DNA of 5,222 bases from a virus, in UHGV virus genome UHGV-0390915, one strand, 5' to 3'. Numbering within the stretch: the stretch's first letter is position 1; every line of letters starts with the position of its first letter. Made by a program: the position numbers and the translations under genes. Below the pieces are notes generated by a model that was given only the letters and a program-made list of their open reading frames with translations, searched no databases and was not told the DNA's origin. This document shows, in pieces, positions 648 to 5,222 of the stretch.

Positions 648-2594
648 TCATCTTAAAACATTACCATCGTAACGAGCTAGCGGACGCAATACGTCCACAT
701 TATTATAAGTCACAGACAATACGTGATTATCTACGGGCTTATCCAAAACACGATCTACCAAAACCGGATCTTTATATCCAAAAGCGGTGAAATACATCTT
801 AGACTGCTCATTCAAATTATCAAAAGCTTTAGAATCAAGAATAAACGGATAAGAAACGCCCTCTGAACCAAAACTCATAATATCAGATAAACGAACTCTA
901 GAAGACAAACTAATATCGACTATTGTATCTCTAGAAGAAATCAAAGAAAAATCTGTAAAACTATCGAGAAGAAGAGGAACACCAGAATGAGATAAATAGA
1001 AAGCAGTAAATGAAGTTGAAATGCCATCGACATTAGTATCAATAACAGAAGCAAGTACATGTTTTCCAACATCTGGAGAATCCGAAACAAAAGTAAGAGA
1101 CTCTATACGAATATCATAAGATACCTTTTTAAAGTGTTCTATAGTAGAACCCTCACCAAAATTATTAACGACCTTAAAAACGACATCCTTAAAATTCAAA
1201 TCCTTAGGAACCCAACAAATACCAGTAAAAGGAATGGCTGCACCATCTTTATAAGAATAAGATGCAGGATCATTAGGATTCAAAACAACATCACTAACAA
1301 GACCCTTGAAAAGATGCAAAGAAAGCGGAGTATCTCTAAATGAAAATATACGATTATCAGGATGACAAGTAACAAAATCAGCAGATAATCGCTCCTTAGA
1401 AATATCTCTAGACATATGCCAATAATCAAGCGAACGCCTAAAATCACCTGATACTATATCATTACCATAACGATAATCATCATAACGAGGTACATAACCG
1501 AAAGCTTCATCTTTAGAACGAGTTACATCAAGTTCACGACCCTCTATCTCCTGATAACCTAAAGCCGAAAAATGAGGATTAAAGAAATCAAAATAAGTAC
1601 GTCTAGTAAACATCTTAGGACAACCGCCGATATTTGACGGTCTAGGACGAACGAAATGAAGACCAATAATCAATCCATGTTCATACACATCATACTGAAT
1701 CTGACCCGTACGATTAACAGAAACAGATTTACCATAACTTTCACCAACTGAACCAAGTTCAGAAGGAGCTGTCTGGTCAACATCTGACACATTAAGTACG
1801 TAACTATCACCACCTAGATACTTAGGTATTTGAACTCTAGCATCCAAAGGCTCAACACCGAAGAACTCCTTAATATAATTAGCATACTTACCACCAACAC
1901 GCAAAAGACGCTCGCGGAAAGACTGCAAACGCTCAGCGAGACGCATCTCTGGCACAGTAATAGTATTATTACCATCCATATCCAGCTGTACCATATTACC
2001 GTACTGCGTAGAGGTATGTGCGCTAGTAAAGTAATCGAGTCCCTCATTAACGTACATCACATTACCAATGTATTTGCGCAAAGAAGCACTACTAAAGTTT
2101 TCAGGGCGCAACTGATCAACATAACGTTCATCTAGATCTGACCTCATATAGTAGTGATTATATATAAGGTAATAAGCTAGTAGGGGAGTAGCATTAAGAT
2201 CCTTAAGCGCATTAGCAGGGTTAACATCTTCATTAGATGTAGCAAGTCCAAAATACTCTAGCAAAGGCTTCTCTAAAAAGAGATCCTTAAAGGTCTTAGC
2301 GCTATACTGTAAATACTTATCCATACCTGGAACAGTCTGACCACTATCAGGATCAGTTAATATCTGCTCATAGTTAGGTATAAGCAATCTATAAGGCACA
2401 TAATAGTACCTCTGGAAGTAATCAAGTCTATGCATCAGCGGAGATAACATAGGCTGTAAACGCACGAGTGTACTAGATTGTACACGATATTTATCACCCG
2501 GCACAACCTCCTGACAGAGGAAAGGAATAAGTTGGCCCATCTCAAAGCTAGATCTTACCTCATGATCTAGCGAATACTTAGTTAGATTTGGCAT
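648..2594 (-). CDS. VP1: VP1 major capsid protein (Microviridae F/VP1 family), 648 aa.
   Basis: This is the longest ORF. The N-terminus MPNLTKYSLDHEVRSSFEMGQLIPFLCQEVVPGDKY matches the conserved gokushovirus VP1 start (F..EV.PGD). Its size of about 650 aa is consistent with a gokushovirus VP1 carrying the large insertion loop. The tandem stop TGATGA is followed 4 nt later by the VP2 ATG. Confidence 0.95.
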   Translation of the reverse strand: MPNLTKYSLDHEVRSSFEMGQLIPFLCQEVVPGDKYRVQSSTLVRLQPMLSPLMHRLDYFQRYYYVPYRLLIPNYEQILTDPDSGQTVPGMDKYLQYSAKTFKDLFLEKPLLEYFGLATSNEDVNPANALKDLNATPLLAYYLIYNHYYMRSDLDERYVDQLRPENFSSASLRKYIGNVMYVNEGLDYFTSAHTSTQYGNMVQLDMDGNNTITVPEMRLAERLQSFRERLLRVGGKYANYIKEFFGVEPLDARVQIPKYLGGDSYVLNVSDVDQTAPSELGSVGESYGKSVSVNRTGQIQYDVYEHGLIIGLHFVRPRPSNIGGCPKMFTRRTYFDFFNPHFSALGYQEIEGRELDVTRSKDEAFGYVPRYDDYRYGNDIVSGDFRRSLDYWHMSRDISKERLSADFVTCHPDNRIFSFRDTPLSLHLFKGLVSDVVLNPNDPASYSYKDGAAIPFTGICWVPKDLNFKDVVFKVVNNFGEGSTIEHFKKVSYDIRIESLTFVSDSPDVGKHVLASVIDTNVDGISTSFTAFYLSHSGVPLLLDSFTDFSLISSRDTIVDISLSSRVRLSDIMSFGSEGVSYPFILDSKAFDNLNEQSKMYFTAFGYKDPVLVDRVLDKPVDNHVLSVTYNNVDVLRPLARYDGNVLR

Positions 2595-2597
2595 AGT

Positions 2598-2996
2598 TTA
2601 TAGATCTTCTATTAGTGAGTAATTCAGCAGGCGGGCAAACTCCCAAATGGAGGGCGTCCAACCTTGTTCAACGTGCCACATTGAGTACAACAAGACAACA
2701 TACTCCAAAGTAGTATCTATATCCTCATCCTCATTAATAAGCTGACCAACAAAGGAGATATAAGCGGCAGTATCATTACCATCTTCTTTAGGCGCCCAAT
2801 AACGTATTATATCACGAGGTGTTTTTGCATCATGAAGATTACGATAATTATAGACAAGAAGGAAAGCAGCACGGACACCGTACTTCATATCCGAGAACTG
2901 ACAGAAGCCATTCTTAGGCTCTGTTTGACCTTTCCAATTATTGGCGGGATTATACCGTATATTAAACGGATTATTTCTATACTTACACGTATTCAT
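2598..2996 (-). CDS. 132-aa acidic accessory protein of unknown function. Tentatively a lysozyme-like or peptidoglycan-hydrolase-like fold. This call rests on my recollection of the motifs and has not been searched.
   Basis: The ORF is MNTCKYRNNPFNIRYNPANNWKGQTEPKNGFCQFSDMKYGVRAAFLLVYNYRNLHDAKTPRDIIRYWAPKEDGNDTAAYISFVGQ... It contains N-P-x-N-I-R ... W-x-G, then G-F-x-x-F-x-x-x-x-x-G-x-R-A-x-x-x-L-x-x-N-Y, then T-P-x-x-I-I-x-x-W-A-P-x-x-x-x-N-D-T-x-x-Y. I recall this pattern from phage-encoded small lysozyme-like domains in Bacteroidetes-type phages. It is tightly coupled at both ends: TGA-6 nt-ATG after the upstream small membrane ORF, and TAA-ACT-ATG before VP1. It does not correspond to any core gokushovirus gene. 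Confidence 0.6.
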   Translation of the reverse strand: MNTCKYRNNPFNIRYNPANNWKGQTEPKNGFCQFSDMKYGVRAAFLLVYNYRNLHDAKTPRDIIRYWAPKEDGNDTAAYISFVGQLINEDEDIDTTLEYVVLLYSMWHVEQGWTPSIWEFARLLNYSLIEDL

Positions 2997-3002
2997 AGCA
3001 TA

Positions 3003-3200
3003 TCAGATTAAGAATACAGACCAACCAAAGGAGACTAAAAGCACTCCAATAGCTACAAGTAGCAAGATGATAGGGATGCGGAACTTACGCAACTTTGCGA
3101 AGAATCCGATTTTAGGTTTGAGAATACTCATATTACAAAGGGGATTTTTTGTTATTAGCGCGGATAGATTTAGACATACGGTCTTGTATGTAGCGCGCAT
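3003..3200 (-). CDS. Small protein with a basic N-terminus and a C-terminal transmembrane helix. It is 65 aa from the ATG at 3200, which overlaps the last 68 nt of VP4. More likely it is 42 aa from the ATG at 3131..3129, which lies 2 nt after the VP4 stop codon. Candidate holin-like or amurin-like membrane protein.
   Basis: The protein is MSILKPKIGFFAKLRKFRIP-IILLLVAIGVLLVSFGWSVFLI. Positions 5-18 carry seven K/R residues. The final 24 residues form one continuous hydrophobic segment that ends the protein. Junction with VP4: TTG TAA T ATG. Junction with the 132-aa ORF: TGA tatgct ATG. Confidence 0.55.
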   Translation of the reverse strand: MRATYKTVCLNLSALITKNPLCNMSILKPKIGFFAKLRKFRIPIILLLVAIGVLLVSFGWSVFLI

Positions 3201-4071
3201 TTTCTACATACTGTTTTACTGTTAGATTAGCGTCAGACGCGAGTTCAGATATACGGGCTGATTTAGCCTCAGGCGATATATCGGGGGCAATAGCTTCGCG
3301 CCATATCTCTGGCACTAGCTTCTTTAGATAGATACGCGGTAGCGTATAGGAGTGACCTCCGATAGCGTAAGTAGGATAGGATTCACCTAGTTTCAAGTGA
3401 TCCCAAAACCAACGGATAAAGGCAGGCTCACGCAGGAGCTGACAACCTAAACCTTGGCTAGCAACAATGAAACTAAACTTTTTCAGATAATACTCAACTA
3501 TATAACGATGCTGAAGATCTCTATTAGACCATATATGATTAAAGATATAATCTACTGATCGACCGGAAACCTTGACATTACGAAACTGCTTAGTAACATA
3601 CTTAGATAGATAATGTATCCGAGCAGGAGTGACAAAATCACATTGTATATTACCATAAGTCCAAACATCAGATATCAAACGGCGCATATCTGTGAGAGTC
3701 ATAGATCGATCAAGATATAATATCACATGATAGTGAGGTCTCAAAGACTCATCGCCATACTCGTGACAGAGGAAATACCGCACTTTGGCAGGCTGTAACG
3801 CCTTACGCAGGCGCTTAAGCCAGCGCTGATAATGATATTTCAAGGGCATACGCAAATTAGACGAAGCATGAAACGGAAGACCTAGCAGAGCGGTATCATT
3901 GTACGTCAAAGTACAGAAGAACGCAGATTCAGAGTACTGCAATTCAACTGTATTGCGGAACATCCAAGACGATCGTTTATTGCTTTGACAAGCGTAACAA
4001 GTACCACAGGGCACTTTGATAAATTTTCCCGTCTTAGGATTCAAGACTTGTATTTGATTAACACATAGCAT
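3133..4071 (-). CDS. VP4: VP4 replication initiation protein, a rolling-circle HUH endonuclease of Microviridae, 312 aa.
   Basis: All three superfamily motifs are present: motif I FFCTLTY, motif II (HUH) PHYHVILY, and motif III with catalytic tyrosines YLSKYVTKQ (Y..KY..K). The N-terminal Cys cluster VPCGTCYACQ is typical of gokushovirus Rep proteins. Confidence 0.95.
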   Translation of the reverse strand: MLCVNQIQVLNPKTGKFIKVPCGTCYACQSNKRSSWMFRNTVELQYSESAFFCTLTYNDTALLGLPFHASSNLRMPLKYHYQRWLKRLRKALQPAKVRYFLCHEYGDESLRPHYHVILYLDRSMTLTDMRRLISDVWTYGNIQCDFVTPARIHYLSKYVTKQFRNVKVSGRSVDYIFNHIWSNRDLQHRYIVEYYLKKFSFIVASQGLGCQLLREPAFIRWFWDHLKLGESYPTYAIGGHSYTLPRIYLKKLVPEIWREAIAPDISPEAKSARISELASDANLTVKQYVENARYIQDRMSKSIRANNKKSPL

Positions 4072-4116
4072 TTACTAGAATGAGTTATACGTTTAGTCCA
4101 AAAGCAGGCTTTTACA

Positions 4117-4372: not shown

Positions 4373-4675
4373 TCAATCGGCTACTGGAGCCGTACCAGTA
4401 TCAGCTGGCGCAGGTGCATCAACACTCACCGGCTGAACCTTAGCAAGTAGATTATCAACATCCGAAACAGTCATATGACGGAAATCATACTTAGTAAGAT
4501 CTGGAGTATCTAAAGTATCAGATGTATCTTCTGATAGAGACAATCCAACATTAAGAGCCTGACCATCCATTAGTTGTTTGACCAAGATCTTTAAATCTAC
4601 AGTCTGATTAGGCAAAGTATCAGACACTGTACTCTGTGGCGATCTAGCCACATACTTATAACTTCTCTTTTCCAT
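4373..4675 (-). CDS. 100-aa acidic protein with an Ala/Pro-rich C-terminal tail. Tentatively the internal scaffolding protein VP3.
   Basis: The ORF is MEKRSYKYVARSPQSTVSDTLPNQTVDLKILVKQLMDGQALNVGLSLSEDTSDTLDTPDLTKYDFRHMTVSDVDNLLAKVQPVSVDAPAPADTGTAPVAD. It is strongly acidic, as scaffolding proteins are. The segment QTVDLKILVKQLMDG is vaguely like the ECDINKIM...TG motif I recall from Chlamydia-phage VP3. If VP2 wraps around the circle, this is the only ORF left that could be VP3. Its start overlaps the upstream small ORF by 20 nt. Confidence 0.45.
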   Translation of the reverse strand: MEKRSYKYVARSPQSTVSDTLPNQTVDLKILVKQLMDGQALNVGLSLSEDTSDTLDTPDLTKYDFRHMTVSDVDNLLAKVQPVSVDAPAPADTGTAPVAD

Positions 4676-4793
4676 GATTATTAAAATTGCGAATCTTGCG
4701 AATTATACTAAGAGTCAATGTCACAATAACCCAAACAGCACACGCAAAAAAAGCAACCATAACAACATAGGTCAATAAATCTGCGAAATTCAT
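4656..4793 (-). CDS. Small single-pass membrane protein. It is 45 aa from the ATG at 4793. The ORF track extends it to 66 aa from a GTG at 4856, which would overlap the VP2 C-terminus by 26 nt.
   Basis: The protein is MNFADLLTYVVMVAFFACAVWVIVTLTLSIIRKIRNFNNHGKEKL. It has a short N-terminus, then a hydrophobic helix of about 26 residues, then a basic C-terminal tail (RKIRNFNNHGKEKL). It lies between the VP2 stop (4831) and the 100-aa ORF. Canonical gokushoviruses have no gene at this position. Confidence 0.5.
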   Translation of the reverse strand: MNFADLLTYVVMVAFFACAVWVIVTLTLSIIRKIRNFNNHGKEKL

Positions 4794-4830: not shown

Positions 4831-5222
4831 TCATTTAATAGTAGCAGCTGCAACACCTAACTTAATAGGAGTAGAAGACGCATTCCAAAAGGCATTCCAA
4901 CCAGCATACCAAGCAGCAGCGTCGGCACGCTCAAAATCAGCTTCGCCCGTTTTCTTCCACAACTCAAACTGCTGATTATGAAAATCTGCTATAGTCTTAA
5001 GCTGATAACCAGCAGGACGAGGTAAACCAGCCTTATCAAAAGCAGCACCTAAATCACCTTCTCCAATATACTGAGGTAAAGAAAGGAAATGATTAAGCGA
5101 TTCATTACCATACGAAAAAGCCAAAGACAAAGCCTCATATTTAGCCTTATCTTGAAGATACGGCTGAATAGATTCAGACAACTGAGCAGACAATTCATTA
5201 ACACGAATCTGAGACGAATGAA
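4831..5222 (-). CDS. VP2: 3' (C-terminal) part of a CDS that enters the window at 5222. Most likely the C-terminal portion of VP2, joined around the circle to the part at 1..640.
   Basis: The apparent M at 5193 in the ORF track is actually TTG. The reading frame stays open up to the window edge, reading ...HSSQIRVNELSAQLSESIQPYLQDKAKYEALSLA... Two leftover nucleotides at 5221-5222 plus the one leftover nucleotide at position 1 of the VP2 N-terminal part make exactly one codon (CTT). The two pieces are therefore in frame if the molecule is a 5222-nt circle. The amino-acid composition continues smoothly across the junction (S/Q/N/I/A/L-rich). Confidence 0.55.
   Translation of the reverse strand, partial: HSSQIRVNELSAQLSESIQPYLQDKAKYEALSLAFSYGNESLNHFLSLPQYIGEGDLGAAFDKAGLPRPAGYQLKTIADFHNQQFELWKKTGEADFERADAAAWYAGWNAFWNASSTPIKLGVAAATIK

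Follow-up and report, generated by a model that had tools for sequence, protein, structure and literature searches.

The virus genome UHGV-0390915, a window of 5222 nucleotides (nt) that was analysed over its whole length, encodes between its replication initiator gene (Rep/VP4) and its major capsid gene (VP1) a protein of 132 amino acids (aa), hereafter referred to as the lysin, which is directly preceded by a 42-aa membrane protein that we designate TM-A. Sequence comparison and structure modelling strongly suggest that the lysin is a peptidoglycan hydrolase of the type represented by the endolysin of the Hafnia phage Enc34 and the protein P5 of phage PM2. The explanation that in our view accounts best for the data as a whole, and that we hold with modest confidence, is that a temperate Porphyromonas microvirus carries TM-A and the lysin as accessory genes for lysis.

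Searches with the lysin in Pfam and NCBIfam yielded nothing significant, and a match to Peptidase_M15 was likewise not obtained in Pfam at E≤1. In the PHROGs database the protein matched phrog_873, annotated as 'endolysin' (E=6.3e-25), over positions 361-442 of the 1277-position profile, and weaker matches were observed with one tape-measure family and one head-protein family. Among the sequences of the Protein Data Bank (PDB) it matched the entry 7q47, 'Endolysin', with E=1.8e-6 when used as a single sequence and E=2e-18 when used as a profile of 60 homologues. With the same two queries, the N-terminus of the 1295-aa protein Gp29 (9vvp) was matched with E=8e-5 and E=1.4e-27, respectively; a literature search for '9VVP' did not retrieve a paper on Gp29. 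The entry 7q47 represents the catalytic domain found in the Enc34 endolysin ORF39, a member of the family PHA02564 that is all-helical, resembles the alpha-lobe of lysozyme and is distantly related to GH73 and GH23 (PMC8943055). Glu131 is its catalytic residue, Tyr95 and Trp79 are important as well, and the authors concluded that the enzyme is most likely a beta-N-acetylglucosaminidase (PMC8943055). M4Lys of the Salmonella phage BSPM4 and the endolysins of the Chiviruses fall into the same PHA02564 group. The identification of 7q47 as the Pae87 lysozyme was rejected, since Pae87 corresponds to the entries 7q4s and 7q4t and belongs to the unrelated PF11860 family (PMC8972805).

An exhaustive HMMER search with the lysin retrieved 4091 cluster representatives at E≤1e-3. 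The AlphaFold2 model calculated from an alignment of 60 homologues reached a mean predicted local distance difference test score (pLDDT) of 94.5 and a predicted template modelling score (pTM) of 0.88, and the sole significant structural neighbour of this model in Foldseek was again 7q47 (probability 1.00, TM-score 0.71-0.72). The residues W67, Y79 and E110 of the lysin align with Trp79, Tyr95 and Glu131 of the Enc34 enzyme. Among 157 family members, the position of W67 is aromatic in 157/157 and that of Y79 is Tyr in 157/157, and the position of E110 is Glu in all of the 150 members aligned there. The protein P5 of PM2, which is 30% identical to the lysin (pairwise E=1e-10), contains the same three catalytic residues. 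Based on the sequence, the profile, the predicted fold and the preserved catalytic residues we therefore assigned the lysin to the Enc34 endolysin's catalytic domain. Moreover, the median ratio of nonsynonymous to synonymous substitution rates (dN/dS) of the lysin gene is 0.11 at a synonymous divergence of ~0.5, as determined for 12 close-clade genomes including the window, to which all dN/dS values and frame counts given below refer as well. The enzyme is thus likely to be catalytically competent, a point settled here in silico.

These results agree with an initial annotation of the window made from the letters alone, which had proposed an acidic, soluble and lysozyme-like muralytic protein and had named the lack of any muralytic homology or fold as grounds for abandoning this idea. 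The family and structure searches did not refute the enzyme, and the matches to phrog_873 and 7q47, the predicted fold and the catalytic residues bear the proposal out. The protein is indeed acidic (pI 5.1) and does not contain a hydrophobic segment (maximum of 0.74 on the Kyte-Doolittle scale over 19 residues). Its N-terminus, MNTCKYRNNPFNIRY, already represents the conserved motif of the catalytic domain, leaving no N-terminal anchor or signal-anchor-release segment, and its C-terminus coincides with the end of the catalytic domain, without the fused C-terminal transmembrane domain of the Enc34 and Chivirus type. Many relatives of the lysin carry an N-terminal membrane anchor consisting of a basic stretch and a transmembrane helix that precede the catalytic domain. 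The 132-aa enzyme is among the smallest family members seen in this analysis.

The positions of the lysin, TM-A and the other genes of the window are as follows:

3133-4071, minus strand: Rep/VP4 replication initiator (PF23343, E=1.8e-18; phrog_942, E=4.5e-50)
3132-3200, minus strand: upstream in-frame extension of TM-A (65-aa form, 3003-3200) that overlaps the 3′-end of Rep, judged to lie outside the gene
3003-3131, minus strand: TM-A, 42-aa membrane protein, candidate for a holin or for a membrane partner of the lysin (open reading frame (ORF), conservation, hydrophobicity)
2598-2996, minus strand: 132-aa lysin, putative peptidoglycan hydrolase of the Enc34/PM2-P5 type, bare catalytic domain (homology, predicted fold)
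648-2594, minus strand: VP1 major capsid protein (PF02305, E=6.6e-55; phrog_514, E=9e-100)
4656-4793, minus strand: TM-B, 45-aa membrane protein at the junction of VP2 and the VP3-like gene, second holin candidate (ORF, architecture)
4373-4675, minus strand: VP3-like ORF of 100 aa (ORF)

All genes are located on the minus strand in the order Rep/VP4, TM-A, lysin, VP1, VP2, TM-B and VP3-like gene, followed by a non-coding stretch of 300 nt. The stop codon of Rep is separated from the start codon of TM-A by a single nucleotide (TAA-T-ATG), the stop codon of TM-A from the start codon of the lysin by 6 nt (TGA-TATGCT-ATG) and the stop codon of the lysin from the start codon of VP1 by 3 nt (TAA-ACT-ATG). 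The two tightly coupled ORFs between VP4 and VP1 that had been noted initially, together with their junction sequences, were thus recovered.

The 42-aa product of TM-A, MSILKPKIGFFAKLRKFRIPIILLLVAIGVLLVSFGWSVFLI, comprises a basic N-terminal part of 20 residues (6 K/R, no D/E, pI 12) followed by a hydrophobic part, residues 21-42, which reaches the C-terminus and has a mean Kyte-Doolittle value of 2.66 over 19 residues (21-39). TM-A is kept in 14/14 relatives checked, namely in 13 close relatives (five GenBank genomes, five IMG/VR contigs and the three integrated prophage copies L020, L027 and L028) and in the more distant relative L001, whose lysin is 60% identical. In every close-clade genome it is located directly upstream of the lysin gene, including the prophages, where gene callers predict TM-A as well; the gap between the two genes amounts to 4-8 nt in the 12 close-clade genomes, and in L001 TM-A likewise lies just upstream of the lysin. 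The homologues share the motif K[ILV]GFFxxLR[KR][FY]R[IV]P...FGW. With a median dN/dS of 0.18 and no overlap with other genes, TM-A is under clear purifying selection. Both the TM-A and the 132-aa ORF are conserved throughout the 12 genomes at a synonymous divergence of ~0.5 and are more than chance ORFs. Among 5.8 billion proteins, the only homologues of TM-A were stand-alone proteins of 41-42 aa from the same clade.

The small membrane protein with a basic N-terminus and a C-terminal helix described in the initial annotation is therefore confirmed as a conserved ORF, though in its 42-aa form. The longer form of 65 aa starting at an upstream ATG, which had been put forward along with it, was rejected because an in-frame stop codon precedes the conserved ATG immediately in the relatives L006, L008 and L010. 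We also considered TM-A as a lysis protein resembling L of phage MS2. The L-like proteins consist of a basic N-terminal domain and a hydrophobic domain and contain a conserved Leu-Ser motif. In TM-A the N-terminus is basic and the C-terminal half hydrophobic, but the conserved motif is [SA]FGW rather than LS.

The adjacency of TM-A and the lysin gene also raises the possibility that both are made as one protein by read-through of the TM-A stop codon, which would give a self-exporting, N-terminally anchored enzyme similar to P5 of PM2 or to a signal-anchor-release endolysin. In 7/12 genomes, that is the window and 6/11 others, TM-A and the lysin share one reading frame, with only one stop codon and two further codons between them, and many family members show exactly this succession of a basic N-terminal stretch, a transmembrane helix and the catalytic domain. 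However, the frames differ in 5/12 genomes (gaps of 4, 7 or 8 nt) and the stop codon of TM-A varies between TGA, TAG and TAA. We therefore rejected both read-through and fusion; a fused homologue of TM-A is also absent from the 5.8 billion proteins, rendering a single polypeptide highly improbable.

With separate products, the lysis mechanism that we propose for TM-A and the lysin would be as follows. The lysin would act as a peptidoglycan glycosidase with an all-helical fold like the alpha-lobe of lysozyme, in which Glu110 would serve as the catalytic acid and Tyr79 and Trp67 would position the sugar. By analogy to the conclusion drawn for the Enc34 enzyme, the bond would probably be cleaved in the manner of a beta-N-acetylglucosaminidase. 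Because Rep, TM-A, the lysin and VP1 form a tight block on the same strand, the lysin is probably expressed together with the late or structural genes and would accumulate in the cytoplasm at a late stage of infection or following induction. Lacking an export signal, it could reach the wall only if the membrane were permeabilised. The most economical membrane partner would be the tail-anchored TM-A encoded 6 nt upstream, acting in a holin-like manner. The second small membrane protein, TM-B, may work together with TM-A or replace it, and both could act jointly, in the way that P17 and P18 accompany P5 in PM2.

A role of the 132-aa enzyme in release, and thus as an endolysin, is in our estimation probable, and that either TM-A or TM-B provides the holin function seems somewhat better supported than the opposite. 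In contrast, the specific assignment of TM-A as the holin, which had been proposed initially, remains tentative. TM-A has the small size and the transmembrane helix of a holin, its gene adjoins that of the endolysin and it is conserved, and this part of the proposal stood. The remainder did not find the same support, and several observations weigh against the combined interpretation of TM-A and the lysin as a lysis pair. TM-A did not match any family significantly in Pfam, NCBIfam or PHROGs, where only generic membrane matches below the threshold were obtained, and its charged domain is N-terminal, whereas a typical holin carries a charged cytoplasmic tail at the C-terminus. Moreover, TM-A is absent from L005 and L021, whose lysins are 51-57% identical and in which Rep abuts or overlaps the lysin gene, and TM-B is more widely conserved than TM-A. 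In the more distant lysin-bearing microviruses L018, L019 and L007, the gene upstream of the lysin does not encode a membrane protein. These differences, together with the absence of TM-A from L005 and L021 and the unrelated small ORFs that occupy the slot between Rep and VP1 in PV594030, a representative of the next-closest VP1 lineage (48% VP1 identity), indicate that the pair is an accessory module that is specific to its lineage and occupies a variable slot. In addition, a component that disrupts the outer membrane was not identified in the genome, in which spanin-like genes were not found either, and our literature search did not reveal any experiment on the 132-aa protein or a microvirus homologue. 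Finally, the Enc34-type domain also occurs in virion proteins, as discussed below.

The product of TM-B, MNFADLLTYVVMVAFFACAVWVIVTLTLSIIRKIRNFNNHGKEKL, is 45 aa in length and has its transmembrane helix at the N-terminus and a basic tail at the C-terminus; its gene overlaps the start of the VP3-like gene by 20 nt. ORFs with this architecture are located at the same junction of VP2 and the VP3-like gene in L001, L005, L006, L014-L017 and L020, and all complete relatives examined had a TM-B-type ORF, among them L005, which does not encode TM-A; in L021 a similar ORF is found downstream of VP3. The architecture is kept, whereas the sequences are very divergent between relatives. Searches of Pfam, NCBIfam and PHROGs with TM-B returned a single family match, to holin_2 of NCBIfam, which was non-significant with 17 bits versus a cut-off of 50. 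We consider TM-B an equally good holin candidate: by position, TM-A is the nearest candidate, and by the breadth of conservation and the layout of charges, TM-B is the better one.

It is thus conceivable, though we regard it as rather unlikely, that the enzyme is correctly assigned but its partner is not, with TM-B being the holin and TM-A a lineage-specific accessory protein, for example an antiholin or regulator of lysis timing, a superinfection-exclusion factor or a membrane tether. This alternative gains from the presence of TM-B-type ORFs in relatives without TM-A, from a layout of short N-terminus, one helix and basic cytoplasmic tail that comes nearer to typical holins, and from the match to holin_2, the only one to a holin family that we observed. 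However, this match is far below the threshold and was not reproduced by other TM-B variants, the TM-B gene is not adjacent to that of the lysin and its sequence is poorly preserved, whereas it is TM-A that is tightly coupled to the lysin gene and maintained by purifying selection. A different alternative concerns the enzyme itself, which could be a virion-associated hydrolase that opens the peptidoglycan locally at entry for the VP2 pilot tube, with lysis being left to a small membrane protein as a single-gene factor. The occurrence of the same domain in virion proteins makes a role in entry possible: P5 of PM2 is annotated as a structural virion protein, GenBank labels microvirus homologues 'P5-like structural protein', and the domain constitutes the N-terminal part of the 1295-aa Gp29 (9vvp) and matches PHROGs of tape-measure and head proteins. 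On the other hand, the 132-aa protein does not have a recognisable extension for binding to the capsid or the pilot protein, and we know of no microvirus virion that carries a wall hydrolase. Reviews name single-gene lysis as the way in which ssDNA phages lyse their hosts (PMC10707117), which would fit this alternative, but the stand-alone Enc34-type enzymes of tailed phages are encoded in lysis cassettes and lyse cells (PMC8943055), P5 of PM2 has been reinterpreted as an endolysin by Yutin et al., and the same slot between VP4 and VP1 carries putative M15 endolysins in related microviruses (PMC3394797). We therefore regard a function in entry as improbable and favour release from the host as the role of the lysin.

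The Enc34 endolysin contains a C-terminal membrane domain of two helices that is required for toxicity, and it is encoded along with a holin and spanins in a cassette of four genes (PMC8943055), whereas the microvirus enzyme is a bare domain of 132 aa and the sole membrane element nearby is the separate 42-aa ORF upstream, in a virus that, unlike Enc34, is an ssDNA microvirus of 5.2 kb. The phage PM2 is likewise small and tailless and combines a P5-type enzyme with two lysis factors of ~50 aa, the holin-like P17 and P18, which disrupts the outer membrane, paralleling TM-A and TM-B. However, PM2 is a dsDNA corticovirus, its P5 has a hydrophobic N-terminal segment of its own, which is absent from the 132-aa protein, and is a component of the virion, and a comparison by eye of the P17 and P18 sequences with those of TM-A and TM-B did not reveal any resemblance. 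Horizontally acquired wall hydrolases are also known from other microviruses, namely the M15_3 peptidases of Alpavirinae, Gokushovirinae and Occultatumvirinae, which in some alpaviruses are encoded in the same VP4-VP1 slot, often beside a small ORF of unknown function, and have been proposed to be endolysins (PMC3394797, PMC11499846). The two classes are unrelated, M15 being a metallopeptidase that cuts peptide cross-links and the 132-aa protein having a glycosidase-type, lysozyme-like fold. Small membrane proteins are also used by small phages for single-gene lysis, as in the case of E of phiX174, and TM-B resembles E in its general organisation, with the helix at the N-terminus and basic residues at the C-terminus. 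E acts by blocking MraY, without the aid of a muralytic enzyme, and is encoded within another gene. In contrast, the window encodes a muralytic enzyme, TM-A has a slot to itself, flanked by Rep and the lysin gene, and the overlap of TM-B with the VP3-like gene is restricted to 20 nt.

The genome itself is complete and circular, with the cut point located within VP2: when the ends of the window are joined (1-647 and 4831-5222, minus strand), a single continuous VP2-like ORF encoding a pilot protein of ~340 aa is restored, from which we concluded that the window represents the entire genome. The middle part of VP2 contains short imperfect repeats (QTQSNE-like), which are more clearly developed as tandem KSIQSQE repeats in the homologue of L001. 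A scan for sigma-70 promoters and terminators was uninformative, with 10 promoter-like sites versus 5.7 expected, and Bacteroidota promoters lie outside its model. In VP1, residues ~420-614 (window 753-1336) do not show nucleotide similarity to the prophage L027, while the flanks are 83-93% identical, and protein alignments of VP1 to two close GenBank relatives end at residue 463. It has the appearance of a capsid module that was exchanged or is hypervariable, and may be the surface insertion that sets the host range.

With respect to the host, bacterial contigs contain integrated blocks of homologous genes beside housekeeping genes, and such blocks are also present in two Porphyromonas genomes, the uncultured Porphyromonas UMGS166 (lysin 89% identical) and a metagenome-assembled Porphyromonas genome (51%). 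The GenBank relatives originate from human vaginal and other human samples. The closest named relative of VP1 is that of Parabacteroides phage YZ-2015b (34% identity), listed by NCBI under unclassified Microviridae. As judged from these sequences, the phage is a temperate Porphyromonas microvirus that is found as prophages, and it belongs to the prophage-forming lineage of Bacteroidota that was called Alpavirinae by Roux et al. (PMC3394797). The earlier designation as a gokushovirus of the Chlamydia-phage type is therefore imprecise, given the integration in Porphyromonas genomes and the affinity of VP1 to YZ-2015b.

A core of ~24 nt just upstream of Rep (4074-4097, minus strand ACTAAACGTATAACTCATTCTAG) occurs at each end of the integrated copies in L027 and L020, and due to this duplication we interpret 4074-4097 as the attachment core. 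The genome does not encode an integrase, suggesting that host recombinases perform the integration, as proposed for the microvirus prophages of Bacteroidota. The divergent clade prophages L005 (7541-8605) and L021 (6545-7597) lie beside the host gene rlmN, in opposite orientations relative to it, and the prophages L001 and L027 adjoin dihydroorotate dehydrogenase genes; the lineage thus uses more than one integration locus.

Homologues of the lysin were detectable in at least ~20 GenBank microvirus records. The confirmed microviral homologues are P0009, P0010 and those in the GenBank microvirus records, and the homologues P0017, P0033, P0089 and P0077 are located on short or non-microvirus contigs. 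The search for the same gene pair in relatives, which had been suggested along with the lysis proposal, retrieved it in the 13 close relatives and in L001, but L005 and L021 keep the lysin without TM-A. In L018, L019 and bajarodmic virus 972 the lysin gene is located elsewhere in the genome and its upstream neighbour does not encode a membrane protein. In L018 (2690-2878) and L019 (1845-2042), which represent a different microvirus lineage, a conserved ORF of 62-65 aa that does not encode a membrane protein and shares the motif ...VLFE[KR]... lies upstream of the lysin homologue, and L018, unlike L019, contains a small ORF with a hydrophobic C-terminus after the lysin homologue. The partners of the lysin thus differ between lineages.

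In the records OP549878.1, OP549879.1, PV067916.1, PV067918.1 and PV067921.1 the lysin is either a 'hypothetical protein' or unannotated, and the 42-aa ORF is never annotated. The homologous region of MG945638.1 is labelled 'similar to VP3', a designation that was not supported by any profile result and that we rejected.

In the papers that we searched, the microvirus wall hydrolases discussed are M15 peptidases only (PMC3394797, PMC11499846), as had been stated at the outset; the GenBank records from rodent faeces, however, already carry the label 'P5-like structural protein' for homologues of the lysin. According to a review of 2023, lysis by ssDNA phages depends on a single gene and proceeds without an enzyme that degrades the wall (PMC10707117), and our literature search did not retrieve a paper that treats Microviridae together with Enc34 in a relevant sense. 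What is new is therefore not the kind of system, but a member of the Enc34/P5 family, together with candidate partners, in a group of viruses for which this family has not been discussed. The analysis also corrects the database annotation of the close GenBank relatives, in which the lysin is hypothetical or unannotated and the 42-aa ORF is missing, and the small enzyme of 132 aa could be of interest to lysin engineers who target Gram-negative anaerobes.

Taken together, the window shows a second class of wall hydrolases in microviruses, unrelated to M15, with a confidently assigned enzyme of the glycosidase type that is accompanied by two conserved mini membrane proteins encoded in the same genome. 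If TM-A and TM-B indeed function with this enzyme, they would rank with the smallest known proteins of the holin type and derive from undescribed families, and TM-A plus the enzyme could represent a split form of a membrane-anchored P5-type lysin. It may even be, although we propose this with caution, that a lineage of temperate ssDNA microviruses gave up single-gene lysis in favour of a miniature multi-component system composed of a bare Enc34/P5-type glycosidase and one or two membrane proteins of ~40 aa. Lysis by microviruses other than phiX174 is largely unknown, and the window supplies a testable route; as the prophages reside in culturable Porphyromonas, the question of how these phages lyse their host can be addressed directly.

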